Below, piece by piece: positions 1 through 54,299 of a stretch of DNA of 64,000 nucleotides. The position numbers and the translations under genes are program-made. The stretch is taken from positions 224,006,001 to 224,070,000 of the forward strand of contig OZ024741.1 in NCBI GenBank assembly GCA_964016885.1, given 5' to 3'. Under the pieces are notes generated by a model. That model ran no database searches. It had not been told where the DNA came from and was given only the letters and a program-made list of their open reading frames with translations. This stretch comes from Eledone cirrhosa. Its lineage: Eukaryota. How positions within the stretch are numbered: position 1 is the first letter of the stretch; every line of letters starts with the position of its first letter.

Positions 1-3000
1 CTCCACCATTAGAAGTCTCCACCCCTAGAAGTCTCCACCACTAGAAGTCTCCACCACTAGAAGTCTCCACCATTAGAAGTCTCCACCCCTAGAAGTCTCC
101 ACCCCTAGAAGTCTCCAACACTAGAAGTCTCCACCACTAGAAGTCTCCACCATTAGAAGTCTCCACCACTAGAAGTCTCCAACACTAGAAGTCTCCACCA
201 TTAGAAGTCTCCACCATTAGAAGTCTCCACCACTAGAAGTCTCCACCACTAGAAGTCTCCACCCCTAGAAGTCTCCACCCCTAGAAGTCTCCACCCCTAG
301 AAGTCTCCACCATTAGAAGTCTCCACCACTAGAAGTCTCCACCACTAGAAGTCCCCACCATTAGAAGTCTCCACCATTAGAAGTCTCCACCATTAGAAGT
401 CTCCAACACTAGAAGTCTCCACCACTAGAAGTCTCCACCCCTAGAAGTCTCCACCCCTAGAAGTCTCCACCATTAGAAGTCTCCACCCCTAGAAGTCTCC
501 ACCATTAGAAGTCTCCACCCCTAGAAGTCTCCACCATTAGAAGTCTCCACCCCTAGAAGTCTCCACCATTAGAAGTCTCCACCACTAGAAGTCTCCACCA
601 TTAGAAGTCTCCACCCCTAGAAGTCTCCAACACTAGAAGTCTCCACCACTAGATGTCTCCACCATTAGAAGTCTCCACCCCTAGAAGTCTCCACCATTAG
701 AAGTCTCCACCCCTAGAAGTCTCCACCATTAGAAGTCTCCACCACTAGAAGTCTCCAACACTAGAAGTCTCCACCACTAGAAGTCTCCACCATTAGAAGT
801 CTCCACCACTAGAAGTCTCCACCCCTAGAAGTCTCCACCATTAGAAGTCTCCACCACTAGAAGTCTCCAACACTAGAAGTCCCCACCACTAGATGTCTCC
901 ACCCCTAGAAGTCTCCACCACTAGAAGTCTCCACCCCTAGAAGTCTCCACCCCTAGAAGTCTCCACCCCTAGAAGTCTCCACCACTAGAAGTCTCCAACA
1001 CTAGAAGTCTCCACCATTAGAAGTCTCCACCACTAGATGTCTCCACCATTAGAAGTCTCCACCCCTAGAAGTCTCCACCATTAGAAGTCTCCACCATTAG
1101 AAGTCTCCACCATTAGAAGTCTCCACCACTAGAAGTCTCCACCATTAGAAGTCTCCACCACTAGAAGTCTCCAACACTAGAAGTCTCCACCATTAGAAGT
1201 CTCCACCCCTAGAAGTCTCCACCATTAGAAGTCTCCACCACTAGAAGTCTCCACCACTAGAAGTCTCCACCCCTAGAAGTCTCCACCATTAGAAGTCTCC
1301 ACCCCTAGAAGTCTCCACCATTAGAAGTCTCCACCACTAGAAGTCTCCACCACTAGAAGTCTCCACCCCTAGAAGTCTCCACCGCTAGAAGTCTCCACCA
1401 CTAGAAGTCTCCACCATTAGAAGTCTCCACCATTAGAAGTCTCCACCACTAGAAGTCTCCACCATTAGAAGTCTCCACCATTAGAAGTCTCCAACACTAG
1501 AAGTCTCCACCATTAGAAGTCTCCACCACTAGAAGTCTCCACCATTAGAAGTCTCCACCATTAGAAGTCTCCAACACTAGAAGTCTCCACCATTAGAAGT
1601 CTCCACCACTAGAAGTCTCCAACACTAGAAGTCCCCACCACTAGATGTCTCCACCCCTAGAAGTCTCCACCCCTAGAAGTCTCCACCATTAGAAGTCTCC
1701 ACCCCTAGAAGTCTCCACCCCTAGAAGTCTCCAACACTAGAAGTCTCCACCACTAGAAGTCTCCACCCCTAGAAGTCTCCACCATTAGAAGTCTCCACCC
1801 CTAGAAGTCTCCACCATTAGAAGTCTCCACCCCTAGAAGTCTCCACCACTAGAAGTCTCCACCACTAGAAGTCTCCACCCCTAGAAGTCTCCACCCCTAG
1901 AAGTCTCCACCCCTAGAAGTCTCCACCACTAGAAGTCCCCACCATTAGAAGTCTCCACCATTAGAAGTCTCCACCATTAGAAGTCTCCACCCCTAGAAGT
2001 CTCCACCCCTAGAAGTCTCCAACACTAGAAGTCTCCACCATTAGAAGTCTCCACCCCTAGAAGTCTCCACCCCTAGAAGTCTCCACCACCAGAAATCTCC
2101 ACCACTAGAAGTAAGTCCCCACCCCTAGAAGTCTCCACCACTAGAAGTCTCCACCATTAGAAGTCTCCACCACTAGAAGTCTCCACCACTAGAAGTCTCC
2201 ACCCCTAGAAGTCTCCACCATTAGAAGTCTCCACCACTAGAAGTCTCCACCCCTAGAAGTCTCCACCCCTAGAAGTCTCCACCACTAGAAGTCTCCACCC
2301 CTAGAAGTCTCCACCACTAGAAGTCTCCACCCCTAGAAGTCTCCACCCCTAGAAGTCTCCACCATTAGAAGTCTCCACCACTAGAAGTCTCCACCCCTAG
2401 AAGTCTCCACCATTAGAAGTCTCCACCACTAGAAGTCTCCACCCCTAGAAGTCTCCACCCCTAGAAGTCTCCACCACTAGAAGTCTCCACCCCTAGAAGT
2501 CTCCACCACTAGAAGTCTCCACCCCTAGAAGTCTCCACCCCTAGAAGTCTCCACCATTAGAAGTCTCCACCACTAGAAGTCTCCACCCCTAGAAGTCTCC
2601 ACCCCTAGAAGTCTCCACCACTAGAAGTCTCCACCCCTAGAAGTCTCCACCACTAGAAGTCTCCACCCCTAGAAGTCTCCACCATTAGAAGTCTCCAACA
2701 CTAGAAGTCTCCACCCCTAGAAGTCTCCACCCCTAGAAGTCTCCACCCCTAGAAGTCTCCAACACTAGAAGTCTCCACCCCTAGAAGTCTCCACCCCTAG
2801 AAGTCTCCACCATTAGAAGTCTCCAACACTAGAAGTCTCCACCCCTAGAAGTCTCCACCCCTAGAAGTCTCCACCCCTAGAAGTCTTCACCACTAGAAGT
2901 CTCCACCCCTAGAAGTCTCCACCATTAGAAGTCTCCACCCCTAGAAGTCTCCACCCCTAGAAGTCTCCACCACTAGAAGTCTCCACCACTAGAAGTCTCC

Positions 3001-5271
3001 ACCCCTAGAAGTCCCCACCATTAGAAGTCTCCACCCCTAGAAGTCTTCACCACTAGAAGTCTCCACCATTAGAAGTCTCCACCCCTAGAAGTCTCCACCC
3101 CTAGAAGTCTCCACCCTTAGAAGTCTCCACCATTAGAAGTCTCCACCCCTAGAAGTCCCCACCATTAGAAGTCTCCACCCCTAGAAGTCTCCACCACTAG
3201 AAGTCTCCACCATTAGAAGTCTCCAACACTAGAAGTCTCCACCCCTAGAAGTCTCCACCACTAGAAGTCTCCACCCCTAGAAGTCTCCACCATTAGAAGT
3301 CTCCAACACTAGAAGTCTCCAACACTAGAAGTCTCCACCCCTAGAAGTCTCCACCACTAGAAGTCTCCACCCCTAGAAGTCTCCACCATTAGAAGTCTCC
3401 AACACTAGAAGTCTCCACCCCTAGAAGTCTCCACCCCTAGAAGTCTCCACCATTAGAAGTCTCCACCCCTAGAAGTCTCCACCCCTAGAAGTATCCACCA
3501 CTAGAAGTCTCCAACACTAGAAGTCTCCACCCCTAGAAGTCTCCACCCCTAGAAGTCTCCACCATTAGAAGTCTCCACCCCTAGAAGTCTCCACCCCTAG
3601 AAGTCTCCACCATTAGAAGTCTCCACCCCTAGAAGTCTCTACCCCTAGAAGTCTCCACCATTAGAAGTCTCCAACACTAGAAGTCTCCACCCCTAGAAGT
3701 CTCCACCCCTAGAAGTCTCCACCATTAGAAGTCTCCACCCCTAGAAGTCTCCACCCCTAGAAGTCTCCACCACTAGAAGTCTCCACCCCTAGAAGTCTCC
3801 ACCCCTAGAAGTCTCGACCACTAGAAGTCTCCACCCCTAGAAGTCTCCACCCCTAGAAGTCTCCACCATTAGAAGTCTCCACCCCTAGAAGTCTCCACCC
3901 CTAGAAGTCTCCACCACTAGAAGTCTCCACCCCTAGAAGTCCCCACCATTAGAAGTCTCCACCACTAGAAGTCTCCACCACTAGAAGTCTCCACCCCTAG
4001 AAGTCTCCACCCCTAGAAGTCTCCACCCCTAGAAGTCTCCACCATTAGAAGTCTCCACCCCTAGAAGTCTCCACCCCTAGAAGTATCCACCACTAGAAGT
4101 CTCCAACACTAGAAGTCTCCACCCCTAGAAGTCTCCACCCCTAGAAGTCTCCACCATTAGAAGTCTCCACCCCTAGAAGTCTCCACCCCTAGAAGTCTCC
4201 ACCATTAGAAGTCTCCACCCCTAGAAGTCTCTACCCCTAGAAGTCTCCACCATTAGAAGTCTCCAACACTAGAAGTCTCCACCCCTAGAAGTCTCCACCC
4301 CTAGAAGTCTCCACCATTAGAAGTCTCCACCCCTAGAAGTCTCCACCCCTAGAAGTCTCCACCACTAGAAGTCTCCACCCCTAGAAGTCTCCACCCCTAG
4401 AAGTCTCGACCACTAGAAGTCTCCACCCCTAGAAGTCTCCACCCCTAGAAGTCTCCACCATTAGAAGTCTCCACCCCTAGAAGTCTCCACCCCTAGAAGT
4501 CTCCACCACTAGAAGTCTCCACCCCTAGAAGTCTCCACCACTAGAAGTCTCCAACACTAGAAGTCTCCACCATTAGAAGTCTCCACCCCTAGAAGTCTCC
4601 ACCATTAGAAGTCTCCACCCCTAGAAGTCTCCACCCCTAGAAGTCTCCACCCCTAGAAGTCTCCACCACTAGAAGTCTCCACCCCTAGAAGTCTCCACCC
4701 CTAGAAGTCTCCACCACTAGAAGTCTCCACCATTAGAAGTCTCCACCACTAGAAGTCTCCACCCCTAGAAGTCTCCACCCCTAGAAGTCTCCACCCCTAG
4801 AAGTCTCCACCATTAGAAGTCTCCACCCCTAGAAGTCTCCACCACTAGAAGTCTCCACCCCTAGAAGTCTCCACCATTAGAAGTCTCCACCCCTAGAAGT
4901 CTCCACCACTAGAAGTCTCCACCCCTAGAAGTCTCCACCCCTAGAAGTCTCCACCATTAGAAGTCTCCACCTCTAGAAGTCTCCACCCCCAGAAGTCTCC
5001 ACCACTAGATGTCTCCACCCCTAGAAGTCTCCACCCCTAGAAGTCTCCACCCCTAGAAGTCTCCACCACTAGATGTCTCCACCCCTAGAAGTCTCCACCC
5101 CTAGAAGTCTCCACCACTAGATGTCTCCACCCCTAGAAGTCTCCACCCCTAGAAGTCTCCACCACTAGATGTCTCCACCCCTAGAAGTCTCCACCCCTAG
5201 AAGTCTCCACCCCTAGAAGTCTCCACCCCTAGAAGTCTCCACCACTAGATGTCTCCACCCCTAGAAGTCTC
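1..5271. repeat. 16-bp tandem satellite CTCCA(C/A)C(A/C)(C/T)TAGAAGT, about 329 units, running off the window start
   Basis: Units start at 1, 17, 33 and so on. Variant cores CCATTAG, CCCCTAG, CCACTAG and ACACTAG are interspersed. Confidence 0.98.
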
Positions 5272-6228: not shown

Positions 6229-6494
6229 GGAAAAGAATGAAACGAAATTTCATTTCCCACTCTTAGTACGGCTGATACCTAAATATAAGTATGTATACAT
6301 GTATACGTACATACATATATGTGTACAGACGTACAGTAGTATGTATATATATACATACATGCACACATATATATATATGTACGTATGGGTTTACCGAACA
6401 TTTATTATAATGTTCGGTTTGTTTGTAAACAAACAGCCCGAATTACGCCGTACAGTGCTTGGCAACCACCTAGTGTTCAACACTGACACAGTAA

Positions 6495-6535
6495 CGATGT
6501 ACTAGTTTCAAGCTTATTAGCTATCGTCAGCATCG
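6495..6535 (-). ncRNA. Minimal type I hammerhead ribozyme
   Basis: Minus strand reads cgaug CUGACGA u-agcu-aaua-agcu-u GAAA cuag UA caucg. Stem I is CGAUG/CAUCG, stem III is the palindrome ACUAGU, and the triplet is GUA. Confidence 0.85.
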
Positions 6536-6728
6536 TATACCTTTCTGTCAGATGATTGAACGTTTGAAAGTATATACTTTCCTTATGCATATTAACGGCT
6601 GAGCAGCCTAATTTGCATATCGAGTGAGTTAGTCGGCCGGGCGCACCGAAAACGATAAATGGAAAAGAATGAAACAAAATTTCATTCCTCACTCTTTCAA
6701 ACGTTCAATCATCTGACAGAAAGGTATA

Positions 6729-6761
6729 CGATGCTGACGATAGCTTGAAACTAGTACATCG
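6729..6761 (+). ncRNA. Hammerhead copy with collapsed stem II
   Basis: cgaug CUGACGA uagcuu GAAA cuag UA caucg; 8 nt deleted between AGCT direct repeats relative to the 6495 copy. Confidence 0.75.
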
Positions 6762-6764
6762 TTC

Positions 6765-6911
6765 CTGGACTAGTCCAGAAATAGCCGTCGAAACGGCTTG
6801 AGCTCTGCCGTCGGGGTCATACTTTTTCCTATTTCCCACTCTACTACCCTAAGTATTGAGTACTCTGGAGCGTTATGATCCATCTGGTTCCTTACCACAA
6901 TTCCTTTGTTA
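6765..6911 (+). mobile_element. Short hairpin-capped PLE-type element (family D, copy 1)
   Basis: Palindrome CTGGACTAGTCCAG, then GTCGAAACGGC...GCCGTCGGGG; ends in (CA)n. Homologous to 10834-11026 and 38517-38686. Confidence 0.75.
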
Positions 6912-11944: not shown

Positions 11945-12134
11945 ATATCGGTTTCAACACACGATTTCAGATAAAGAATCTTGCTAAACAAATCCAGAAA
12001 CGAAATATATATATATATATATATATATAACAGATTAAAGTTTAAGCAAAGAATCGCTGCTTTCACCCTTAACGGGATCTTCTGAAACTAATAAAGTCAA
12101 TCTGTGAACGCAGAAGTGAATATTTCAAAAACCG

Positions 12135-12878
12135 TTGCAATCGGATAAGGTAGCATATACAGAGTACGAGAATAGACCTAGAAGAAATAGATCCCGACGC
12201 ATTATATGGTATAACCCACCATATAATATGGAGGTGGTCACACCATTAGCTAAGATCTTTCTCTCCCTTATTATGAAGCATTTTTCCCCTACACATAAAT
12301 ATAGTAAAATTTTTAATAGAAATACTATTAAATTTTTTTACTCTACGACTCCTAACCTTGCACATAACATCACAGCTTCAAATTTAGCTAAATTAACTAG
12401 CCGTAGGAACACGTGCAACCCTGTAGTTAGTACTAACTGTAATTGTAGGAATCGGGTTGACTGCCCCCTATCCGGGAAATGCCTCTCTAGTAACATTGTC
12501 TACAAATGTAAGGTTGAAACACCCACGTCCCGTAGGGCCTACATAGGGTTAACCGCCAATAGATTCAAGCAGCGTCTTTACATGCATACCCATTCTTTTC
12601 GTTACCCTTTAAGAAGGAATATGACGTCACTTTCAGCTTATATCTGGAGTCTAAAAGACAACCACACCCAATATAAGTTACACTGGGAGATCCTAGCTAG
12701 GGCTAGATCGTATAACGGAAATAAAAGACCATATGACCTCTGCGCCGCCAAGGCCCTGGAAATACTCTACGCCAAAGACCACATCTTAAACAAAAAATCT
12801 GAGGCAATTTCAGCTTGTAAACATAAATTGCACAACACTTTCCTGTATTACAGCCCCACATTATACCCTAACGGATAG
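12135..12878 (+). pseudogene. Linker plus GIY-YIG endonuclease of a PLE; reverse transcriptase missing
   Basis: Motifs WYNPP, CNCRNRVDC (CxCx5C), NIVY...AYIGLT..FKQR..H, WEIL, LNKKSE and CKH. The expected catalytic Glu reads K (LCAAK versus LCLAE at 10.5 kb). Confidence 0.9.
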
Positions 12879-13670
12879 TACGAACTATACGCAGATATTT
12901 TACGTCTTGATGTGGTAGCTAAGTATATGTTATGTTTATACCATTACTTATTTGTATAGGTAAGTATATATTACCTGTGTTTTGTGAAGGTACGTATACT
13001 TTCTCGTACGTATATTTGATTGGATATGTTATGGCGTATATATTCTATATTCTGGTACATATGCTTTTGGTTATGCGTATACGTGAGTTTTGCGTTTGTG
13101 TGAGTATGCGGGTTCGTACGTATGTAGGATGTGTGTATATGTGTACTTTGTATTTTGGTTGACGTACGTCTCCGAACATATGTGTATTTACATGTAGGTA
13201 TGTGTGTGTGCTTGTTATATACGGATTTATTTATTTATATACGTTTATTTAATTATATGTATACACGCACACACACATATATATATATATATTTTTATAT
13301 ATATTTTTATGTGTACTTGGTGTATACATTCGTATGCGTGCGGGTACAGGCGTTGCGTGGGTTCTGTAAGTGCGTGCGGGTTTGTTTTTTTTTGTTTTGT
13401 TTTTTGTACGTGCGTGTATTTGTATACCTATGGCGAGTGTTTTCGCGTATGCTTGTGTATGTACGTTTATGGATGCGTGTATGTATTTATTTAATTTCAA
13501 TTACCTCTGTATTTTATTTACTTTATTCTTAATAATGACGTATTATATTCGTTTTTTTCCCGTTCTTTGCCAGGGAACATTTCCACGAACCAAAGTATCG
13601 TCTTCCTGTCTTCCTCCGGTTGCAACGTTTTTTGAAATATTCACTTCTGCGTTCACAGATTGAATTTGTT

Positions 13671-13721
13671 AGTTTCAGAAGATCCCGTTAAGGGTGAAAG
13701 CAGCGATTCTTTGCTTAAACT
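13671..13721 (+). ncRNA. Type I hammerhead-like motif with variant core CAGAAGA (mirror copy at about 12039-12089, minus strand)
   Basis: aguuu CAGAAGA u-ccc-guuaa-ggg-u GAAA gca-9nt-ugc UU aaacu; stem I is extended by CAGAUUGA/UUAAUCUG. Confidence 0.7.
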
Positions 13722-13857
13722 TTAATCTGTTATTTTAATAAATATTTGTTCTACGGTTCTTATATATTTGATATATATTTATCCTTACCGAGCCCTCTTT
13801 GGATTTTAGTCTTCAAATTTATTATTATTACTATATATATATATATATATATATATA

Positions 13858-17837: not shown

Positions 17838-20032
17838 GGAACTGCAACACCAAAGACCGCAACAACAAAAACTGCAACATCAAGAGCTGCAAATCAAGAA
17901 CTGCAACACAAAAAACTGCAAGATAAAAAAAAACGCAACATAAAAAACTGCAACACCAAGAGCTGCAACGTCAAAAACTGTAACCTCAAAAACTGTAACA
18001 TAAAAAACTGCAACGCCAAAAACTGCAACATCAAAAAGCACAATATCAAAAACTGCAACATCAAGATCTGCAACGCTGCAACGTCAAACACTTCAACATA
18101 AAAAACAGCAACACCAAAAACTGCAACATCAAAAACCACAATATCAAAAACTGCAACATCAAGATCTGCAACGCTGCAACGTCAAACACTTCAACATAAA
18201 AAACAGCAACACCAAAAAACTGCAACATCAAAAACCACAATATCAAAAACTGCAACATCAAGATCTGCAACGCTGCAACGTCAAACACTTCAACATAAAA
18301 AACAGCAACACCAAAAACTGCAACATCAAAAACCACAATATCAAAAACTGCAACATCAAGATCTGCAACGCTGCAACGTCAAACACTTCAACATAAAAAA
18401 CAGCAACACCAAAAAACTGCAACATCAAAAACCACAATATCAAAAACTGCAACATCAAGATCTGCAACGCTGCAACGTCAAACACTTCAACATAAAAAAC
18501 AGCAACACCAAAAACTGCAACATCAAAAACCACAATATCAAAAACTGCAACATCAAGATCTGCAACGCTGCAACGTCAAACACTTCAACATAAAAAACAG
18601 CAACACCAAAAAACTGCAACATCAAAAACCACAATATCAAAAACTGCAACATCAAGATCTGCAACGCTGCAACGTCAAACACTTCAACATAAAAAACAGC
18701 AACACCAAAAAATGCAACATCAAAAACCACAATATCAAAAACTGCAACATCAAGATCTGCAACGCTGCAACGTCAAACACTTCAACATAAAAAACAGCAA
18801 CACCAAAAAACTGCAACATCAAAAACCACAATATCAAAAACTGCAACATCAAGATCTGCAACGCTGCAACGTCAAACACTTCAACATAAAAAACAGCAAC
18901 ACCAAAAAACTGCAACATCAAAAACCACAATATCAAAAACTGCAACATCAAGATCTGCAACGCTGCAACGTCAAACACTTCAACATAAAAAACAGCAACA
19001 CCAAAAACTGCAACATCAAAAACCACAATATCAAAAACTGCAACATCAAGATCTGCAACGCTGCAACGTCAAACACTTCAACATAAAAAACAGCAACACC
19101 AAAAACTGCAACATCAAAAACCACAATATCAAAAACTGCAACATCAAGATCTGCAACGCTGCAACGTCAAACACTTCAACATAAAAAACAGCAACACCAA
19201 AAACTGCAACATCAAAAACCACAATATCAAAAACTGCAACATCAAGATCTGCAACGCTGCAACGTCAAACACTTCAACATAAAAAACAGCAACACCAAAA
19301 AACTGCAACATCAAAAACCACAATATCAAAAACTGCAACATCAAAATCTGCAACGCTGCAACGTCAAACACTTCAACATAAAAAACAGCAACACCAAAAA
19401 ACTGCAACATCAAAAACCACAATATCAAAAACTGCAACATCAAGATCTGCAACGCTGCAACGTCAAACACTTCAACATAAAAAACAGCAACACCAAAAAC
19501 TGCAACATCAAAAACCACAATATCAAAAACTGCAACATCAAGATCTGCAACGCTGCAACGTCAAACACTTCAACATAAAAAACAGCAACACCAAAAAACT
19601 GCAACATCAAAAACCACAATATCAAAAACTGCAACATCAAGATCTGCAACGCTGCAACGTCAAACACTTCAACATAAAAAACTGCAACACCAAAAAACTG
19701 CAACATCAAAAACCACAATGTCAAAAACTGCAACATCAAGATCTGCAACGCTGCAACGTCAAACACTTCAACATAAAAAACAGCAACACCAAAAACTGCA
19801 ACATCAAAAACTGTAACCTCAAAAACTGTAACATAAAAAAACCGCAACACCAAAAAACTGCAACATCAAAAACCACAATATCAAAAACTGCAACATCAAG
19901 ATCTGCAACGTTGCAACATTAAAAACAGCAACACCAAAAAACTGCAACATCAAAAACTGCAAGTTCAAAAACTACAACACAAAAAACGTGCAACATCAAG
20001 CAAGAGCTGCAACACCAAGAATTGCAACATTC
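17838..20032. repeat. 98/99-bp satellite built from ~15-bp AAAAACTGCAACATC subunits, with degenerate edges
   Basis: CAAGATCTGCAACGCTGCAACGTC recurs every 98-99 bp; the repeat-derived ORFs recur at a 197-bp spacing. Confidence 0.97.
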
Positions 20033-20095
20033 AAAACTTCATGGAAAACTGAAATTTCCATTTTTGTTTGGGAAATGCAGAAGTAGAATAGGATT

Positions 20096-23251: not shown

Positions 23252-23338
23252 GTGTATTCAGAACATATTCCTCCTGCTTATTTTCATCTTATTTTGTTCT
23301 GTTGTGTGGTTTCCTCACTGGATTCAGTAAAATGAACA

Positions 23339-24082
23339 GAGAGGACAATAAACCACTGGCCAGATCCAAGAGAGGACAATATACCACTGGCCAGATCCAA
23401 GAGAGGACAATATACCACTGGCCAGATCCAAGAGAGGACAATATACCACTGGCCAGATCCAAGAGAGGACAATATACCACTGGCCAGATCCAAGAGAGGA
23501 CAATATACCACTGGCCAGATCCAAGAGAGGACAATATACCACTGGCCAGATCCAAGAGAGGACAATATACCACTGGCCAGATCCAAGAGAGGACAATATA
23601 CCACTGGCCAGATCCAAGAGAGGACAATATACCACTGGCCAGATCCAAGAGAGGACAATATACCACTGGCCAGATCCAAGAGAGGACAATATACCACTGG
23701 CCAGATCCAAGAGAGGACAATATACCACTGGCCAGATCCAAGAGAGGAAAATATACCACTGGCCAGATCCAAGAGAGGAAAATATACCACTGGCCAGATC
23801 CAAGAGAGGACAATATACCACTGGCCAGATCCAAGAGAGGACAATATACCACTGGCCAGATCCAAGAGAGGACAATATACCACTGGCCAGATCCAAGAGA
23901 GGACAATATACCACTGGCCAGATCCAAGAGAGGACAATATACCACTGGCCAGATCCAAGAGAGGACAATATACCACTGGCCAGATCCAAGAGAGGACAAT
24001 ATACCACTGGCCAGATCCAAGAGAGGACAATATACCACTGGCCAGATCCAAGAGAGGACAATATACCACTGGCCAGATCCAA
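23339..24082. repeat. 31-bp minisatellite GAGAGGACAATATACCACTGGCCAGATCCAA, about 24 near-identical units
   Basis: Units start at 23401, 23432 and so on; two adjacent units near 23745-23785 share a C>A variant. Confidence 0.98.
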
Positions 24083-30040: not shown

Positions 30041-30631
30041 CATCCTTCAATTTATTCACGCATTAGGTCTTCAATACTTGGTTATTCAATGTAGTCATAT
30101 ACAAAATAACAACAAAAGTTGTCATTAAGGAGGTCACACACTTTGTGACGAAAGAGGTTCGATGAATATCAACAACTAAACACCGATCCAATTATTAAAC
30201 TAACCGACTGGGAAATTATAATAACAAATTGAAGTGAAATCCAATAGGTGCGTGTGTTTTTTTATTGGCAGCATGACCCTCCCAGAAAGGTACTGGCGGG
30301 ACAAAGAAATAGACGGGTGAGAAGAAGAAGGTGGAAGTAAGAAGATTATAGGAGAGGAAAAGTGATAGAGAGTCGTGGCATATTTAGATAATGCAAGAAG
30401 CAAAGAAAATATCAGTGATACAAAAAGATTTCCTGGTGGAAGTTCAGGTAAACTCCGGGTGTATATCCAGTTCCAGAGTGAAAATCCAATTTGAAAATCC
30501 AACAAATTTGAGAGGTCGACGTAAGCATTGATATTTATATGTATGTCAAAGGTAAACAGAAGTAACAACACAATTAGTACAGTATATGGAAGGAATATAT
30601 TAGGTTAACGCTTGAAATAACAGGAAGAGGG

Positions 30632-30667
30632 TCTTAACGTTTCGAACGCTAGTCCTTCATCAGAAGA
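30632..30667 (-). ncRNA. Minimal hammerhead in pLTR
   Basis: ucuu CUGAUGA a-ggac-uagc-guuc GAAA CG UU aaga. Confidence 0.82.
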
Positions 30668-31139
30668 AATAATGAGAAATTAGAAAGATTGAAGGGATGG
30701 ATGGGACGGAATCGAAAAAAAATGTTTTTAGAGAAAAATAACAGGTCCATTCATGTTGCCATCTCTTGGAAAACTGTTGATGCTGGCGTTTTGTTTATGA
30801 TTTATTTTTTTAGAAAAGTGGATGATGGAGCGCGTCTATCCGTTTTGTATATAGAGCTATACTTGTGCGCGCGCGCCTGTGTTATTATACATCCGTACGA
30901 AGCTAAGAGGATATGTAAGCAAAAGAGTGTGGGCGTGCTTTTAAGTACGAAACTGTGAGCAAAAGTATGTCAATATAAAGGTGTATGTGTGTGTGTATAC
31001 AGAGCTGTGAAGGGAAAAGTAGAGTGTGCATATTTTGTTGGTCTGTATCAGCTGTAAGAGTATATGTTTCTGACCATAAGAGGGCCATAGGAATCTAGGG
31101 GTGTGTGTGATAACGGATGGGGTATTAAAGAAATTGAAT

Positions 31140-31733
31140 TCATAAGGGAAACCCAAGGCGGTAAATCAGACTCTGTTCAGTCCTGGTGCGCGAGGCCTGT
31201 GCACCGTGATGTAAAAGGACACCAAGGACTGAGACATATAGGGAAGAGTGACCTGGGGAACGGAAATGACGAGCGACGGGAGTATCCATATCGAGTTGTA
31301 TGACCCTCAAATGTTCAGCAAAACGGTCCGCCCAACGGTGTCCCGTTTGTCCGATGTATAAGGACCCGAAAAAGGAACACCGGAGGGCATAGACAACGTG
31401 GGTGGGTGTGCAGGTGAAGGAGTGACGGATACGGAATGACCCGTTAGGGCCTGTGAGAGTGGCGAGGGTGGAAATGAAGGGACAAGTGTTGCAGCGGGGA
31501 TGAGAACAAGTATGAGAGCCGGGTAGAGTCGTAGGAAGCGTCGAGAAGGAACTGCGTGCCAGGAGGTTGCGGAGGTTACGGGCGCGCTTAAATGCGGTGA
31601 TGGGTGGTTTAGCAAAAAAACGAGGAGTGACAGGTTCAGAAGAGAGGGTGCGGAACGAACGGAGAATATGTCGCCGGAAAAGTAGGGTGATGGGGTGGTA
31701 GGTAGGAAAGAAAGGCGGATCTTGGGAGGGCAC
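31140..31733 (-). pseudogene. Linker Zn-finger plus GIY-YIG endonuclease of a PLE
   Basis: TYHP, AFKRARNLRNLL, CSHPRCNTC, FTC...VVYALRC..LYIGQT...RFAEH, PVARHF and R..EQ.LI.RL. Confidence 0.92.
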
Positions 31734-32121
31734 TGGTGAGGTAAGAGGGCTATGGTACGGTCGGTTTCATGGGCGCGGGTGAGAGTGGCTTGGATCGGTG
31801 ACATATTCTCCGTTCCTTCCGCACCCTCTCTTCTGACCCCGTCACTTCTCGCTTTTTTCCTAACCCACCTATCACTGCATTTAAGCGCGCCCGTAACCGC
31901 CACGATCTCCTGGTACGCAGTTCCTTCTCGTCGTCTCCTACAACTCCACCCGGCTCTCATCCTTGTTCTCGTCCCCGCTGTAACACTTGTCCTTACGCCA
32001 GCATCAACAGTTTTCCAAGAGATGGCAACATTAATGGACCTGTTATTTTTCTCTAAAAACATTTTTTTTATCCGATTCCGCCCCGTCCGTCCCTTCAATC
32101 TCTTTCTAATTTCTCATTCTT

Positions 32122-32157
32122 TCTTCTGATGAAGGACTAGCGTCCGAAACGTTAAGA
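32122..32157 (+). ncRNA. Minimal hammerhead in inverted pLTR
   Basis: ucuu CUGAUGA a-ggac-uagc-gucc GAAA CG UU aaga; loopless palindromic stem III ACGU. Confidence 0.85.
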
Positions 32158-32269
32158 CCCTCTTCCTGCTATTTCAAGCGTTAACCTAATATATTCCTTC
32201 CATATACTGTACCGATTGTGTTGTTATTTCTATTTACCTTTTACAAGTATATACATATATATATATCTA

Positions 32270-32751: not shown

Positions 32752-32756
<5 letters not shown>
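32270..32756. mobile_element. Tigger-like non-autonomous DNA transposon, left end eroded
   Basis: Right end ...GGAACGTATCCCCCACGATAAAAGGGGTTACTG-TA has the same style as 14187-14223. Confidence 0.55.
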
Positions 32757-32801
<45 letters not shown>

Positions 32802-32804
<3 letters not shown>

Positions 32805-33232
32805 AAAGTTCTATTTAAATTGTTGGGATACAACAAGTAAATATTTTTATAACTGATATAAAGCACTCGACAAGTATTTGGAATAAACATACGATATTAA
32901 CAAATGGAAACTATATTTATAAAACCATATTTATTTCATTATACATATTTCAAGGATACCAAGTTAAATTATGGTGTGCTTTCATCAGACAAAATACAAT
33001 ATATACCAGTTTTATAAATAAACATTGACGTACCCTTTTCAAAATGCGACCGTTAGTTTTGGGAGACATCAGTCGCATTTTGAAAAGGGTACGTCAATGT
33101 TTATTTATAAAACTGGTATATATTGTATTTTGTCTGATGAAGGCATACCATAATTTAACTTGGTATCCTTGAAATATGTATAATGAAATAAATATGGTTT
33201 TATAAATATAGTTTCCATTTGTTAATATCGTA
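32802..33232 (-). mobile_element. Fold-back hammerhead element (family A, copy 1)
   Basis: About 160-bp arms at 32890-33050 and 33072-33232 with a 21-nt spacer; (TA)n on both sides; homologous to 53483-53945. Confidence 0.88.
33126..33190 (+). ncRNA. Type I hammerhead (mirror copy 32932-32996, minus strand)
   Basis: uauuuugu CUGAUGA agg(c)auacca-10nt-ugguauccuu GAAA uaugua UA augaaaua. Confidence 0.78.
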
Positions 33233-33249
33233 TATATATATATATATAT

Positions 33250-33658
33250 TGAGTATATGTTGGTTGTATACCAACACCTCAATATGCAGGCTGGAGCACT
33301 CGACGAAGTGCGCAGGTTGGTTTGGTTACTCCGGAGTAATGTAAAATAAAGTTAAATAAAAAGTCAAATGTTTAAAATTTAGCTTCGTTTATTACTGCTA
33401 TATATATTTCAGTGACAGCCATCTTTGGCTGTGACCTCGTCATATGATTCCAGTTCGTCAGTGAAATAACAACCCAACCAGGAACTGGGCATATCAGAGT
33501 ATTGACAAAATCATACACCTCAACAACATATGTACTTGTCTATACCACACTAATTCGGACTGCCTGAAGAGGTCACAGCCAAAGATGGCTGTCACTGAAA
33601 TATATATAGCAGTAATAAACGAAGCTAAATTTTAAACATTTGACTTTTTATTTAATTT

Positions 33659-33665
<7 letters not shown>
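33250..33665 (-). mobile_element. Fold-back hammerhead element (family B)
   Basis: Arms at about 33342-33438 and 33569-33665; (TA)n on both sides. Confidence 0.85.
33559..33613 (+). ncRNA. Type I hammerhead ribozyme
   Basis: acugc CUGAAGA ggucacagcca-aaga-uggcugucacu GAAA uauaua UA gcagu. The mirror copy at 33394-33442 is broken at the core. Confidence 0.9.
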
Positions 33666-37467: not shown

Positions 37468-37686
37468 AAAAGGTAAACAGAAATAACAAAGCAACGGGCA
37501 CATAAGAAATATATTAGTTAGTTTTCCGCTTGATACAGTAGAACGTTATGGACGCTAGTCTTTCATCAGAGAATGGAATGAGAAATTAAAGAAAAAAATA
37601 GAGTCAGCAGTAGCAGAAACAAAAACAATTTCCTTGAGATAAAGCAGGTCTATTCAGCTCGCCATCTCTTGTTGAATCCAGCGTCT
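37468..37686 (-). mobile_element. Diverged pLTR related to 30548-30789, with a degenerate hammerhead
   Basis: CUGAUGA aagacuagcgucc AUAA CGUU, in which GAAA is mutated; same AAAGGTAAACAGAA end. Confidence 0.7.
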
Positions 37687-43054: not shown

Positions 43055-46000
43055 TAATGTGTACTATAGTAGGTATGTAGTATAGGATGTGTTGTGTGTG
43101 TACTATAGTAGGTATGTGGTATAGGATGTGGTGTGTGTACTATAGTTGGTATGTGGTATAGGATGTGGTGTGTGTGTACTATAGTATGTGTGTGGTATAG
43201 GATGTGGTGTGTGTACTATAGTAGGTATGTGTGTGGTATAGGATGTGTTGTGTGTGTACTATAGTAGGTATGTGGTATAGAATGTGGTGTGTATGTACTA
43301 TAGTAGGTATGTGTGTGGTATAGGATGTGTTGTGTGTGTACTATAGTAGGTATGTGGTATAGGATGTGGTGTGTGTACTATAGTAGGTATGTGGTATAGG
43401 ATGTGGTGTGTGTACTATAGTAGGTATGTGGTATAGGATGTGGTGTGTGTGTACTATAGTAGGTATGTGTGTGGTATAGGATGTGTTGTGTGTGTACTAT
43501 AGTAGGTATGTGGTATAGGATGTGGTGTGTGTACTATAGTAGGTATGTGGTATAGGATGTGGTGTGTGTACTATAGTAGGTATGTGGTATAGGATGTGGT
43601 GTGTGTGTACTATAGTAGGTATGTGGTATAGGATGTGGTGTGTGTACTATAGTAGGTGTGTGGTATAGGATGTGGTGAGTGTGTACTATAGTAGGTATGT
43701 GGTATAGGATGTGGTGTGTGTACTATAGTAGGTATGTGGCATAGGATGTGGTGTGTGTACTATAGTAGGTATGTGGTATAGGATGTGGTGTGTGTACTAT
43801 AGTAGGTATGTGTGTGGTATAGGATGTGGTGTGTGTGTACTATAGTAGGTATGTGGTATAGGATGTGGTGTGTGTACTATAGTAGGTATGTGGTATAGGA
43901 TGTGGTGTGTGTACTATAGTAGGTGTGTGGTATAGGATGTGGTGTGTGTACTATAGTAGGTATGTGGTATAGGATGTGGTGTGTGTACTATAGTAGGTAT
44001 GTGGTATAGGATGTGGTGTGTGTACTATAGTAGGTATGTGGTATAGGATGTGGTGTGTGTACTATAGTAGGTGTGTGGTATAGGATGTGGTGTGTGTACT
44101 ATAGTAGGTATGTGGTATAGGATGTGGTGTGTGTACTATAGTAGGTATGTGGTATAGGATGTGGTGTGTGTACTATAGTAGGTATGTGGTATAGGATGTG
44201 GTGTGTGTACTATAGTAGGTGTGTGGTATAGGATGTGGTGTGTGTACTATAGTAGGTATGTGGTATAGGATGTGGTGTGTGTGTACTATAGTAGGTGTGT
44301 GGTATAGGATGTGGTGTGTGTACTATAGTAGGTATGTGGTATAGGATGTGGTGTGTGTGTACTATAGTAGGTATGTGTGTGGTATAGGATGTGGTGTGTG
44401 TACTATAGTAGGTATGTGGTATAGGATGTGGTGTGTGTGTACTATAGTAGGTATGTAGTATAGGATGTGGTGTGTGTACTATAGTAGGTGTGTGGTATAG
44501 GATGTGGTGTGTGTACTATAGTAGGTGTGTGGTATAGGATGTGGTGTGTGTGTACTATAGTAGATATGTGGTATAGGATGTGGTGTGTGTGTACTATAGT
44601 AGGTGTGTGGTATAGGATGTGGTGTGTGTACTATAGTAGGTATGTGGTATAGGATGTGGTGTGTGTGTACTATAGTAGGTATGTGGTATAGGATGTGGTG
44701 AGTGTGTACTATAGTAGGTATGTGGTATAGGATGTGGTGTGTGTGTACTATAGTAGGTATGTGGTATAGGATGTGGTGTGTGTACTATAGTAGGTGTGTG
44801 GTATAGGATGTGGTGTGTGTGTACTATAGTAGATATGTGGTATAGGATGTGGTGTGTGTGTACTATAGTAGGTGTGTGGTATAGGATGTGGTGAGTGTGT
44901 ACTATAGTAGGTATGTGTGTGGTATAGGATGTGGTGTGTGTACTATAGTAGGTATGTGGTATAGGATGTTGTGTGTGTACTATAGTAGGTATGTGTGTGG
45001 TATAGGATGTGGTGTGTGTGTACTATAGTAGATATGTGGTATAGGATGTGGTGTGTGTGTACTATAGTAGGTGTGTGGTATAGGATGTGGTGTGTTTGTA
45101 CTATAGTAGGTATGTGGTATAGGATGTGGTGTGTGTACTATAGTAGGTATGTGGTATAGGATGTGGTGTGTGTACTATAGTAGGTGTGTGGTATAGGATT
45201 TGGTGTGTGTACTATAGTAGGTGTGTGGTATAGGATGTGGTGTGTTTGTACTATAGTAGGTGTGTGGTATAGGATGTGGTGTGTGTGTACTATAGTAGGT
45301 GTGTGGTATAGGATGTGGTGTGTGTACTATAGTAGGTGTGTGGTATAGGATGTGGTGTGTGTGTACTATAGTAGGTATGTGGTATAGGATGTGGTGTGTT
45401 TGTATTATAGTAGGTGTGTGGTATAGGATGTGGTGTGTGTACTATAGTAGGTATGTGTGTGGTATAGGATGTGGTGTGTGTGTACTATAGTAGGTATGTG
45501 GTATAGGATGTGGTGTGTGTGTACTATAGTAGGTATGTGGTATAGGATGTGGTGTGTGTACTATAGTAGGTGTGTGGTATAGGATGTGGTGTGTGTACTA
45601 TAGTAGGTGTGTGGTATAGGATGTGGTGTGTGTACTATAGTAGGTGTGTAGTATAGGATGTTGTGTGTGTACTATAGTAGGTGTGTGGTATAGGATGTGG
45701 TGTGTGTACTATAGTAGGTGTGTAGTATAGGATGTGGTGTGTGTACTATAGTAGGTGTGTGGTATAGGATGTGGTGTGTGTACTATAGTAGGTGTGTAGT
45801 ATAGGATGTTGTGTGTGTACTATAGTAGGTGTGTAGTATAGGATGTGGTGTGTGTACTATAGTAGGTATGTGGTATAGGATGTGGTGTGTGTACTATAGT
45901 AGGTATGTGGTATAGGATGTGGTGTGTGTGTACTATAGTAGGTATGTGGTATAGGATGTGGTGTGTGTACTATAGTAGATATGTGGTATAGGATGTGGTG

Positions 46001-48930
46001 TGTGTACTATAGTAGGTATGTGTGTGGTATAGGATGTGTTGTGTGTGTACTATAGTAGGTATGTGTGGTATAGGATGTGGTGTGTGTACTATAGTAGGTA
46101 TGTGTGGTATAGGATGTGGTGTGTGTACTATAGTAGGTATGTGGTATAGGATGTGGTGTGTGTACTATAGTAGATATGTGGTATAGGATGTGGTGTGTGT
46201 ACTATAGTAGGTATGTGTGTGGTATAGGATGTGTTGTGTGTGTACTATAGTAGGTATGTGGTATAGGATGTGGTGTGTGTACTATAGTAGGTATGTGTGG
46301 TATAGGATGTGGTGTGTGTACTATAGTAGGTATGTGGTATAGGATGTGGTGTGTGTACTATAGTAGATATGTGGTATAGGATGTGGTGTGTGTACTATAG
46401 TAGGTATGTGTGTGGTATAGGATGTGTTGTGTGTGTACTATAGTAGGTATGTGGTATAGGATGTGGTGTGTGTACTATAGTAGGTATGTGGTATAGGATG
46501 TGGTGTGTGTACTATAGTAGGTATGTGTGTGGTATAGGATGTGGTGTGTGTGTACTATAGTAGGTATGTGGTATAGGATGTGGTGTGTGTACTATAGTAG
46601 GTATGTGGTATAGGATGTGGTGTGTGTACTATAGTAGGTATGTGGTATAGGATGTGGTGTGTGTACTATAGTAGGTGTGTGGTATAGGATGTGGTGTGTG
46701 TACTATAGTAGGTGTGTGATATAGGATGTGGTGTGTGTACTATAGTAGGTATGTGGTATAGGATGTGGTGTGTGTACTATAGTAGGTATGTGGTATATGA
46801 TGTGGTGTGTGTACTATAGTAGGTGTGTGGTATAGGATGTGGTGTGTGTACTATAGTAGGTATGTGGTATAGGATGTGGTGTGTGTACTATAGTAGGTAT
46901 GTGTGTGGTATAGGATGTGGTGTGTGTACTATAGTAGGTGTGTGGTATAGGATGTGGTGTGTGTACTATAGTAGGTGTGTAGTATAGGATGTGGTGTGTG
47001 TACTATAGTAGATATGTGGTATAGGATGTGGTGTGTGTGTACTATAGTAGGTATGTGGTATAGGATGTGGTGTGTGTACTATAGTAGGTGTGTGGTATAG
47101 GATGTGGTGTGTGTACTATAGTAGGTATGTGGTATAGGATGTGGTGTGTGTACTATAGTAGATATGTGTGTGGTATAGGATGTGGTGTGTGTGTACTATA
47201 GTAGGTATGTGGTATAGGATGTGGTGTGTGTACTATAGTAGGTATGTGTGTGGTATAGGATGTGGTGTGTGTGTACTATAGTAGGTATGTGGTATAGGAT
47301 GTGGTGTGTGTACTATAGTAGGTATGTGTGTGGTATAGGATGTGGTGTGTGTGTACTATAGTAGGTATGTGGTATAGGATGTGTTGTGTGTGTACTATAG
47401 TAGGTATGTGTGTGGTATAGGATGTGGTGTGTGTACTATAGTAGGTATGTGGTATAGGATGTGGTGTACGTACTATAGTAGGTATGTGTGGTATAGGATG
47501 TGGTGTGTGTACTATAGTAGGTGTGTGGTATAGGATGTGGTGTGTGTACTATAGTAGGTGTGTGGTATAGGATGTGGTGTGTGTACTATAGTAGGTGTGT
47601 GGTATAGGATGTGGTGTGTGTACTATAGTAGGTGTGTGGTATAGGATGTGGTGTGTGTACTATAGTAGGTGTGTGGTATAGGATGTGGTGTGTGTACTAT
47701 AGTAGGTATGTGGTATAGGATGTGGTGTACGTACTATAGTAGGTATGTGTGTGGTATAGGATGTGGTGTGTGTGTACTATAGTAGGTATGTGGTATAGGA
47801 TGTGGTGTGTGTGTACTATAGTAGGTATGTGGTATAGGATGTGGTGTACGTACTATAGTAGGTATGTGGTATAGGATGTGGTGAGTGTGTACTATAGTAG
47901 GTATGTGGTATAGGATGTGGTGAGTGTGTACTATAGTAGGTATGTGGTATAGGATGTGGTGTGTGTACTATAGTAGGTGTGTGGTATAGGATGTGGTGTG
48001 TGTGTACTATAGTAGGTATGTGGTATAGGATGTGGTGTACGTACTATAGTAGGTATGTGGTATAGGATGTGGTGTGTGTGTACTATAGTAGGTGTGTGGT
48101 ATAGGATGTGGTGAGTGTGTACTATAGTAGATATGTGGTATAGGATGTGGTGTGTGTACTATAGTAGGTATGTGGTATAGGATGTGGTGTGTGTGTACTA
48201 TAGTAGATATGTGGTATAGGATGTGGTGTGTGTACTATAGTAGGTATGTCGTATAGGATGTGGTGTGTACGTACTATAGTAGGTATGTGGTATAGGATGT
48301 GGTGTACGTACTATAGTAGGTATGTGTGGTATAGGATGTGGTGTGTGTACTATAGTAGGTGTGTGGTATAGGATGTGGTGTGTGTACTATAGTAGGTATG
48401 TGGTATAGGATGTGGTGTGTGTACTATAGTAGGTATGTGGTATAGGATGTGGTGTGTGTACTATAGTAGGTATGTGTGTGGTATAGGATGTGGTGTGTGT
48501 ACTATAGTAGGTATGTGGTATAGGATGTGGTGTGTGTGGTATAGGATGTGGTGTGTGTGTACTATAGTAGGTATGTGGTATAGGATGTGGTGTGTGTACT
48601 ATAGTAGGTATGTGGTATAGGATGTGGTGTGTGTGGTATAGGATGTGGTGTGTGTGTACTATAGTAGGTATGTGGTATAGGATGTGGTGTGTGTACTATA
48701 GTAGGTATGTGGTATAGGATGTGTGTGTATGTACTATAGTAGGTATGTTGTGGTATAGGATGTGGTGCGTGTGTACTATAGTAGGTATGTGGTATAGGAT
48801 GTGGTGTGTGTACTATAGTAGGTATGTGGTATAGGATGTGTGTGTGTGTACTATAGTAGGTATGTTGTGGTATAGGATGTGGTGCGTGTGTACTATAGTA
48901 GGTATGTGGTATAGGATGTGGTGTGTGTGT
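43055..48930. repeat. ~37-bp satellite TACTATAGTAGGTATGTGGTATAGGATGTGGTGTGTG, about 155 units
   Basis: Units start at 43101, 43138 and so on; length varies by TG steps; each unit holds the palindrome TACTATAGTA. Confidence 0.97.
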
Positions 48931-52474: not shown

Positions 52475-53068
52475 GTATGTGTATATGTGTGTATATGTGT
52501 GTGTGTGTGTGTTTGTTTGTTTATGAGTTTGTGTATGTGTATGTGTGTGTGTTTGTGTATGTGTGTGTGTGTTTGTGTATGCGTGTGTTGTTTGTATCTT
52601 TGTGTATGCGTGTGTGTTTGTGTATGCGTGTATGTGTTTGTGTATGTGTTTGTGTGTATGTGTGTTTGTGTATGCGTGTGTTTGTGTACGTGTATGCGTG
52701 TGTGTGTTTGTGTACGTGTATGCGTGTGTGTGTATTTGTGTATGTGTATCCGTGTGTGTGTATGCGTGTGTGTGTTTGTGTTTGTGTATGCGTGTGCGTT
52801 TGTGTGTTTGTGTATGTATATGCGTGTATGTGTTTGTGTGTATGTGTTTGTGTGTATGTGCATGCATGTGTGTGTTTGTGTTTGTGTATGCGTGTGTATG
52901 TGTATGTGTGTGTGTGTGTTTGTGTATGTGTGTGTGTATTTGTGTGTTTGTGTATACGTGTGTGTAATTCCTTAGTTTGAGAAGTAGGGAGAGATATTAT
53001 GGAGAATATGTATGTATGTGTGTGTGTCTATATATATATATGCATATATATATATGTGTGTATGTATA

Positions 53069-53118
<50 letters not shown>

Positions 53119-53162
53119 CATGTATATATATATGTTTGTATATATATATGTGTGTATGTATA

Positions 53163-53210
<48 letters not shown>

Positions 53211-53270
53211 CATGTATATATATATGTTTGTATATATATATATATGTGTGTATGTATATGTGTGTGTGTA

Positions 53271-53302
<32 letters not shown>

Positions 53303-53350
53303 CATGTATATATATATGTTTGTATATATATATATATGTGTGTATGTATA

Positions 53351-53398
<48 letters not shown>

Positions 53399-53482
53399 CA
53401 TGTATATATATATGTTTGTATATATATATATATGTGTGTATGTATATGTGTGTGTGTATATATATATATATATATACATACA
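52475..53482. repeat. (TG)-rich and (TA)/(TG) compound microsatellites
   Basis: Direct reading; an approximately 95-bp higher-order unit lies in 53040-53480. Confidence 0.92.
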
Positions 53483-53945
53483 TGTAAAGTTATATTTAAA
53501 ATTGTTGGGTTACAACTAGTAAATATTTATAACTGATATAAAAGCACTCGACAAATACTTGGAGTATATTTACAATATTAAATAAATGGAAAACTATATT
53601 TATAAAACCATATTTATTTCATTATATATATTTCGGGGATATCATATTAACAATATGCTATGCCTTCATCAGACAAAATACAATATAAACAGTTTTATAG
53701 ATAAATATATTCGACATACCGTAATAAACATCAACTTCATTTGAAGAGGTTCACTCTAGCAGTGAACCTCTTCAAATGAAGTTGATGTTTATTACGGTAT
53801 GTCGAATATATTTATCTATAAAACTGTTTATATTGTATTTTGTCTGATGAAGGCATAGCATATTGTTAATATGATATCCCCGAAATATATATAATGAAAT
53901 AAATATGGTTTTATAAATATAGTTTTCCATTTATTTAATATTGTA
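53483..53945 (-). mobile_element. Fold-back hammerhead element (family A, copy 2)
   Basis: About 186-bp nearly perfect arms at 53570-53755 and 53761-53945 with spacer CTAGC. Confidence 0.9.
53836..53901 (+). ncRNA. Type I hammerhead (mirror copy at about 53615-53680, minus strand)
   Basis: uauuuugu CUGAUGA aggcauagcauauug-u-uaauaugauaucccc GAAA uauaua UA augaaaua. Confidence 0.78.
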
Positions 53946-54299
53946 TATATATACATATATATATACATGTATATATATATATGTTTGTATATATATATAT
54001 ATATGTGTGTGTGAATATGTATATGTGTGTATGTATATACAAGTATGCATATGTGTGTTGTGTGTATGTGTGAATGTGTTTGTGTCTGTGCGTATGTTGG
54101 ATTTAAAAGAAGACTGAAACCAGGAAATCATACAAAAAGTACTAAAAGTGAAAGCGGATATTTATATATATTATGAATATGTATGAGTATATACATGTGT
54201 ATGTGTATATGTATATGTTTGTATATTTGTATATGTATGTACATGCATTTGTAAAATGTTTTTGTATGTGTGTGTGTATATATATACTCAACTACTCTA

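Follow-up and report, generated by a model that had tools for sequence, protein, structure and literature searches.

Hammerhead-bearing palindromes in Eledone cirrhosa as truncated insertions of a Penelope-like element, probably primed from both ends of the target cut

Introduction

A palindromic repeat that carries a ribozyme motif on both of its strands raises the question of how its second arm was made. We addressed this question for two such repeats in a 64,000-nt stretch of the Eledone cirrhosa genome (assembly GCA_964016885.1, contig OZ024741.1, positions 224,006,001 to 224,070,000), hereafter the window. An inverted 5' copy, a one-sided tail, a hammerhead and a (TA)n target are all published traits of Penelope-like elements (PLEs; PMC8557442, PMC3846280, PMC4209133), and the palindromes are therefore not a new kind of element. 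The step that creates the inverted repeat of PLEs is called unresolved in PMC8557442, and the palindromes allow a test of this open question, namely how PLEs make both their inverted repeats and their tail.

Results

Two palindromes share one plan

Both palindromes are real, and each is embedded in a (TA)n tract, copy 1 at 32802-33232 and copy 2 at 53483-53945; sequence comparison showed them to be 86% identical. The plan read in them by a first-pass annotation of the window, consisting of (TA)n, a one-sided tail, an inverted repeat with a short spacer and again (TA)n, held when the coordinates were re-measured. Copy 1 is preceded by a (TA)n target of 23.5 repeat copies at 100% (32755-32801). 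It opens with an 88-nt single-copy tail on the minus strand (32802-32889), a 3' extension of one arm only, whose left end would be the distal RT start. In full-length copies, the tail sequence runs on into the 5' UTR and the ORF. Sequence comparison places the tail-bearing arm, a pLTR with its sense on the minus strand, at 32890-33050; it continues toward the element's 5' end through the 21-nt spacer (33051-33071, minus strand). The inverted tail-less arm follows on the plus strand (33072-33232), its right end being the putative proximal RT start, and (TA)n resumes at 33233-33249. The arms of copy 1 are 161 nt long and differ at two sites, 32976 and 32980.

Copy 2 is flanked by a TA-rich microsatellite on its left (53029-53482) and by a (TA)n target on its right (53946-54004). 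Its tail (53483-53570, minus strand) measures 88 nt, or up to 93 nt when TA-ambiguous bases are counted. The tail-bearing arm (53571-53755, minus strand) and the inverted tail-less arm (53761-53945, plus strand) are 185 nt long, identical to each other and separated by a 5-nt spacer. The centre (53750-53766) is a natural 6-bp inverted repeat with a 5-nt loop and occurs in 25 exact copies in the genome.

Both differences between the copy 1 arms reappear jointly in two further loci (L003 and L019) of a query-biased sample, there on the tail arm only. They match an older subfamily with 691 exact matches, and they are also complementary to a tail 7-mer, with which they pair at a probability of ~0.98. 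Conversion or templated mutation may have produced them.

Each arm carries a hammerhead motif

As the first-pass annotation had noted, the hammerhead motif is present on both arms of both copies: each of the four arms contains CUGAUGA, a stem II, GAAA, a 2-bp stem III and an AUA triplet. In copy 1, the type I motif spans 32926-33002 of the tail-bearing arm (minus strand; CUGAUGA 32988-32982, GAAA 32951-32948, predicted cleavage after 32940) and 33120-33196 of the inverted arm (plus strand; CUGAUGA 33134-33140, GAAA 33171-33174, predicted cleavage after 33182). The corresponding boxes of copy 2 lie at 53672-53666 and 53634-53631 on the minus strand of the tail-bearing arm, and at 53844-53850 and 53882-53885 on the plus strand of the inverted arm. 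Comparing the arms bore out a further reading of that annotation: the two copies do not differ in core or stem I, whereas stem II is different and pairs nonetheless. An alignment of 18 arms, taken from several subfamilies, has 429 cells, of which 96.5% pair; this score is biased in favour of the structure, which was drawn from the same 18 sequences. Three stem II pairs are changed on both sides. A type I hammerhead with a short stem III in the pLTR fits the description given in PMC4209133.

An Rfam scan returned no hammerhead match; its sole match, mir-130 at 33021-33101 on the hairpin centre, was taken as chance. Folding of the four single arms gave weak z-scores, from -1.5 to +1.2, with stem II present in most folds; both arms of copy 1 also formed a helix resembling stem I. 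The tail was considered as a general off-switch that pairs with the ribozyme core, but the pairing is strong only in the tail arm variant of copy 1, and not in L061 or L147, two of the ORF-bearing loci described below.

The order of motifs in a transcript is the reverse of what had been proposed, namely a hammerhead followed by its antisense. Since the arms stand head to head, reading through from either side places the antisense ahead of the ribozyme in the transcript. Such a transcript is predicted to fold as one long hairpin (-264 kcal/mol) that buries the hammerhead.

The palindromes are stubs of an ORF-coding parent

Searching the 3.0-Gb genome with copy 2 recovered matches that were 100% identical over 275 nt at 40 of 40 scored places, several of which stand as direct pairs ~4 kb apart. 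Inspecting one such full-length locus, L061, revealed the order (TA)n, inverted tail-less arm, 649-nt 5' pLTR with tail, 737-aa ORF, 3' UTR, pLTR with tail, and (TA)n. The parent monomer is 3,982 nt long. L061 to L064 contain direct repeats of 649-1,444 nt, ~4 kb apart, and are thus partial tandems with direct pLTRs. The tail-bearing arm of copy 2 is 100% identical to the pLTR of L061. Similarly, copy 1 is 96-97% identical to the pLTRs of three ORF-bearing loci (L147, L150 and L154); the ORF pieces in these loci belong to a sister ORF, 78-79% identical in DNA. Overall, the palindromes are not stand-alone elements but truncated stubs of an ORF-coding parent, and we are nearly certain that this parent is a PLE of which both are 5'-truncated insertions.

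The single 737-aa ORF combines an RT, in which YRDD is present, with a GIY-YIG domain. Pfam and PDB sequence searches of this ORF gave 0 hits each, and its identity is therefore based on motifs, homologues and fold. We found 36 homologues at 31-42% identity, among them one from Argonauta hians at 39%. The structure model has a pLDDT of 87, and a fold search placed telomerase RTs on top (TERT at ranks 1, 2, 5 and 6). The GIY-YIG domain was recognized by motif only, with IVY...YVG at residues 615-632 and conserved R, E and N downstream; the Pfam GIY-YIG model gave weak matches, with a best E of 0.012, in 5 of 30 homologues. Of 144 scored matches, at least 30 have the complete open frame of 738 residues; judged from these sequences, the family is young and recently active. 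At C7:78454262-78463084, three intact ORFs stand head to tail, 4,011 nt apart.

Other repeats in the window

Copy 1 shares its right-hand (TA)n tract with an immediately adjacent repeat (33250-33664) that is unrelated to it and has the same plan: a single-copy part of ~90 nt, head-to-head arms and a hammerhead-like CUGAAGA...GAAA at 33564 on the plus strand. It is likely a second PLE family. At 12015-13745, inverted ends of 131 nt (94%) surround a 216-aa frame (12201-12848) that matches the C-terminal part of the L061 ORF at 40% identity and contains CxCx5C and YIG; by these sequence features, the repeat is a truncated copy of another Hydra-like family. A further repeat at 30531-32258 has head-to-head inverted arms of 264 nt (92%) with hammerhead-like cores at 30663 (minus) and 32126 (plus), and a decayed third copy of it lies at 37569 (minus). 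CUGANGA...GAAA motifs occur elsewhere at 6489-6767, 33992, 62963 and 17443, and one pair of them, at 6530 (minus) and 6734 (plus), lies in an 82-nt inverted repeat. Large tandem arrays occupy 1-5271, 17839-20036, 23338-24082 and 43058-48928, with units of 16/32, 99, 31 and 37 nt, respectively.

Insertions have two fixed outer ends

We counted positions from the tail end of L061 (0). The tail-less end lies exactly at -93; BLAST prints it as -87 because this end runs into TA. The exact pattern of the tail-less end joined to TA occurs 1,360 times in the genome for the copy-2 subfamily and 2,479 times for the copy-1 subfamily, and that of the tail end joined to TA occurs 698 times, while reversed control patterns of the junctions gave 0 matches. 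Of 49 tail ends on C1, 33 lie within 12 kb of a tail-less end that faces outward, whereas inward-facing or same-strand tail-less ends numbered 0.

To pair the ends, 140 anchored arms were followed, 70 for each type of end, taken in both cases from the first 100 listed. Where the partner of a tail end was untruncated, it stopped at the -93 junction in all 30 cases, and the tail is present in 43 of the 44 partners of tail-less ends. Insertions thus have two fixed outer ends, 0 and -93, and nearly always one of each. Together with the 1,360 and 2,479 exact matches, this agrees with the earlier suggestion that the inverted arm ends at a programmed place. The exceptions to one tail per insertion were L064, with a tail on both arms, and L076, with a tail on neither. 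Both outer ends overlap the target by TA, as primed ends would, and the putative start sites lie 43 and 136 nt before the ATG.

Inner ends are unequal and pile up at a putative run-off site

In contrast to the outer ends, which are fixed, arm lengths range from ~40 nt to several kb, into the ORF, and most centres are unique. We compared the two arms in 78 head-to-head pairs, after dropping 6 duplicates and leaving out pairs whose partner lay beyond the fetched stretch. The inverted arm was more than 5 nt longer in 39 pairs and the tail arm in 14; the arms were equal (within 5 nt) in 25. In 11 of the 78 pairs, the tail arm ends inside the tail, and the arms have no sequence in common. Later deletions inside the palindromes could account for part of this asymmetry.

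Among the arms that reach -278, 13 of 39 tail arms and 24 of 51 tail-less arms end at -278 to -290, a rate ~10-20 times the per-base rate before it. For both arm types, the pile-up falls on the A of TTCACT, at -285, which corresponds to window position 53763 (minus strand) inside the copy 2 centre. The same word, an Inr-like TCACT, is reported for the Penelope pLTR of the rotifer A. vaga (PMC3846280). This A is a candidate transcription start, both as a run-off hotspot and by the base that precedes it. The element's own base before A(-285) is C; among 53 arms that start there beside TA-like sequence, the preceding base was G in 28, T in 17, C in 5 and A in 3. Inspecting all 28 G arms showed that 4 could be templated by the partner arm, leaving 24: 13 tail-less and 8 tail-bearing arms that stand solo, and 3 arms with partners. 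No extra G was found in the 18 loci with neighbouring starts at -284 to -282 (24/53 vs 0/18, Fisher p = 3e-4), a control that is weak because most of the 18 joins use a T overlap, which would trim an extra base. In L1 insertions, an extra G marks capped 5' ends, as described in PMC11702581. The pile-up, the extra G and the solo arms therefore suggest that each arm type can be a primary cDNA of a capped sense RNA.

In the copy-1 subfamily, we found no clear extra G (0/9, with few in 63 rows), and its joins run through a TAT overlap. The arms of this subfamily mostly end at -268 to -275 of their own reference, at a similar word, CCACT. No spliced joins to an acceptor near -277 were found among the arms listed.

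The hammerhead would be a passenger of the pLTR in these insertions: since the arms extend across its cleavage site (-145), their template was uncut or religated. Run-off at this site found no support as a source of inner ends: a single arm of each type, out of 70 tail-less and 70 tail arms, stops there, and indels at -145 are absent from all 46 long arms. About one third of the arms pass -285, and the 5' pLTRs of full-length copies reach -648, -797 and -1445. These pLTRs of 649-1,444 nt exceed a linear RNA that starts at -285, and a circle, a tandem transcript or a jump is therefore needed; a circular template has been proposed for PLEs (PMC4209133). Two tests of the long arms for template-switch scars found none. 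Insertions at -288 to -292 (12 of 46 long arms) were considered as scars of a template jump and discarded, being variants of older subfamilies; the youngest arms pass this stretch cleanly. Inner ends recur at -648 (L035, L061 and L064) and at -797 (L056 and L062) with differing partners, and are possible start or stall sites.

Arms of one insertion agree, and alternatives are weighed

Within one insertion, the two arms carry the same base at 377 of 378 polymorphic sites, where 83 disagreements would be expected of random arms. Twelve rare variants are common to both arms, 7 of them found in that insertion only, and one-arm differences number 23 in 8,486 columns. This concordance counts against fully independent arms. 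Two RNA sources per insertion were rejected for the copy-2 subfamily, given 1 discordant site in 378. The concordance fits one RNA copied by two RTs with the one at -93 leading, and it also fits a snap-back at joining; arms would agree as well if one had been copied from the other or if conversion between them had followed later. Permutation showed a surplus of symmetric centres outside the hotspot (6 vs 0.5 expected) and fewer tail-longer pairs than in the permuted set (14 vs 24).

The concordance thus speaks for the best surviving alternative, in which one cDNA folds and copies back to a fixed stop at -93, or an antisense RNA primes itself, as PMC3846280 proposes for PLEs. Such a fold-back would produce the near-complete agreement, the 7 private shared variants and the surplus of symmetric centres. 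It would also suit the copy-2 centre, a natural 6-bp hairpin found in 25 exact copies, although this centre could come from either route, two primings or snap-back, and snap-back is described at R2 5' junctions (PMC11371274). Nevertheless, we consider fold-back unlikely. The supposed copy is longer than its template in 39 of the 78 pairs, and 11 pairs share no sequence. For example, the tail arm of L058 ends at -286 and its inverted arm reaches -859. Moreover, 13 solo tail-less arms carry the cap-like G, which stands at the sense 5' end, where an antisense template would not be expected to leave it. The self-primed second-strand synthesis that the first-pass annotation had suggested hence finds no support as a general cause, given the longer tail-less arms (39/78), the pairs with nothing shared (11/78) and the 13 solo tail-less arms. 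Snap-back may still help to join the centre in a subset of insertions, as the symmetric centres would suggest.

Less probable again is a hairpin with two tails, made from one cDNA, from which an endonuclease trims one arm at -93 on integration; PMC8557442 suggests the tail as a resolution product. Trimming would explain both the concordant arms and the bias to longer tail-less arms, and L064 keeps its tail on both arms. It cannot, however, yield the 14 of 78 pairs, or the full-length copies, in which the tail arm is the longer one. Furthermore, both outer ends share the TA overlap with the target that primed ends would have, and the data for the lizard element PAc place RT starts at both tail boundaries (PMC11167929).

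That the palindrome is a non-autonomous unit, retrozyme- or MITE-like and copied whole, is very unlikely. Copying of a unit would account for the 25 exact copies of one centre and for the few other centres that recur 3-4 times among the 78 pairs; yet most centres are unique, lengths span ~40 nt to several kb, 25 is small beside 1,360 ends, and where centres recur, they do so at the run-off hotspot and at a natural overlap. As to defined classes of such units, a MITE or foldback DNA element was rejected, as the one-sided tail and the variable centre and length differ from a fixed-length unit with terminal inverted repeats. A non-LTR retrozyme was likewise rejected, since these are head-to-head stubs continuous with an ORF and not a head-to-tail non-coding tandem.

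Raw Illumina reads from three samples of another study, which hold related subfamilies mostly 90-99% alike and not the two window loci, contained the tail-less end joined to (TA)n in thousands of reads, as well as recurring opposite-strand joints. Palindromes are a known trouble for assembly (PMC8557442) and the two window loci were seen in the assembly only, but a fold-back artefact of assembly or library has a negligible probability given flanks that are not mirrored, a one-sided tail, ends fixed to the base over thousands of loci, two differences between the arms of copy 1 and the junction types present in those raw reads of related subfamilies.

Proposed mechanism: priming from both ends of the cut

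Our preferred reading, to which we assign a probability of about 75%, is that the palindromes formed as both ends of a double-strand cut primed RT at two fixed sites, 93 nt apart, on capped sense RNA. Solo arms and unequal inner ends point to two primings and speak against self-primed fold-back as the general cause. The target would be a double-strand cut in (TA)n. Transcription would start at A(-285) and supply the capped sense RNA as template, as the pile-up and the extra G suggest. The start sites used would be those in the 5' UTR, making the short copies run-off products. Each arm would be a primary cDNA, consistent with the solo arms and unequal inner ends, and the concordance of the arms indicates that both cDNAs may derive from one RNA or one source locus. 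The template is likely held by a protein dimer, as is predicted for PAc. The two cDNA 3' ends would then be joined head to head by end joining, through short overlaps or templated inserts, both of which are seen at pair centres; snap-back may assist joining in a subset. Finally, the tail would represent the stretch between the two start sites.

The evidence tips slightly toward a broader claim, by which every event places two RT active sites 93 nt apart on one capped sense RNA, with starts in the 5' UTR, and by which the inverted pLTR and tail of all EN+ PLEs are the obligatory product of fixed-site twin priming rather than of self-priming. If so, short copies are strong-stop-like run-offs, and long, more-than-unit copies need a second template, such as a circle made by the hammerhead.

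Discussion

Thousands of near-identical insertions allowed us to resolve ends to the base, and with them the cap-like G and the solo arms that favour two-ended priming on sense RNA. For a reconstitution, the family also provides intact ORFs, a simple target and a template defined as 285 nt. Its host genome continues to gain long hairpin-forming inserts from it.

Within the PLEs, motifs would assign the parent to the Hydra clade, to which Hydra-1_Obim of Octopus bimaculoides belongs (Craig et al. 2021, PMC8557442). The clade is described as marked by DKT, by CxCx5C, by the lack of CCHH and by a CxxC and a CxH placed around the final E and N (PMC8557442). Our protein has DKT in place of DKG (residues 118-120), CNCRDRSKC as the CxCx5C linker (23 of 30 aligned rows), CDLCAEE for the CxxC before E (CxxC..E in 28 of 30) and CKH for the CxH near N (CxH in 26 of 30), and its EN domain is without CCHH. 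It further resembles the clade in its single ORF with a C-terminal GIY-YIG-type domain, the hammerhead in the pLTR and the (TA)n target, a preference also found when partners were chosen regardless of TA. An inverted 5'-truncated copy is likewise reported for Penelope-13_HM (PMC8557442). The GxKF/Y motif is not conserved, with G[LF]K[FY] in 0 of 30 rows. Unlike the clade, the protein has RWR instead of RWK, although among the 30 rows RWK occurs in 13 and RWR in 12, and the 3,982-nt monomer exceeds a size described as "generally" below 3 kb, with one member listed at 3,045 nt (PMC8557442). The tail is also longer, 88-93 nt here versus 30-40 nt published for PLEs (PMC8557442), and the hammerhead sequence differs from the one listed for Hydra-1_oBim.

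Penelope elements of D. virilis and A. vaga show partial tandems with pLTRs, an inverted 5' repeat, a one-sided tail, a palindrome at the inverted junction and a promoter in the pLTR (PMC2377424, PMC3846280), all as found or proposed here. The difference concerns the interpretation: PMC3846280 reads the palindromes as antisense self-priming, whereas the cap-like G and the solo arms favour sense RNA and two primings. Non-LTR retrozymes, too, are short repeats that do not code for protein and carry a type I hammerhead related to PLE pLTRs (bioRxiv 10.64898/2026.07.22.740005), but they are described as head-to-tail tandems, while the palindromes are head-to-head stubs, with variable inner ends, of an ORF-coding element.

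PAc (Poseidon, Anolis carolinensis) has two RT start sites, demonstrated in vitro, that bound the tail downstream of the hammerhead, and both target strands are cut and extended at an AT-rich target, on an uncleaved RNA template (PMC11167929); we infer the same for the present family. Its starts lie inside the ORF, unlike the putative sites 43 and 136 nt before the ATG here. That study gives no account of the inverted copy and leaves the later steps open; the mechanism proposed here extends its result. In the open-access literature that we searched, we found no report of twin priming or of a cap-derived G for PLEs. L1 twin priming offers a parallel for these steps: both ends of the cut prime RT, the inverted pieces are end-joined, and an extra G is seen at capped 5' ends (PMC11702581). 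In L1, the second priming is described as internal, variable and chosen by overlap near the end of the first cDNA, which yields an inversion that duplicates little. Here, in contrast, it would occur at a fixed site 93 nt from the first, and the two arms therefore duplicate each other.
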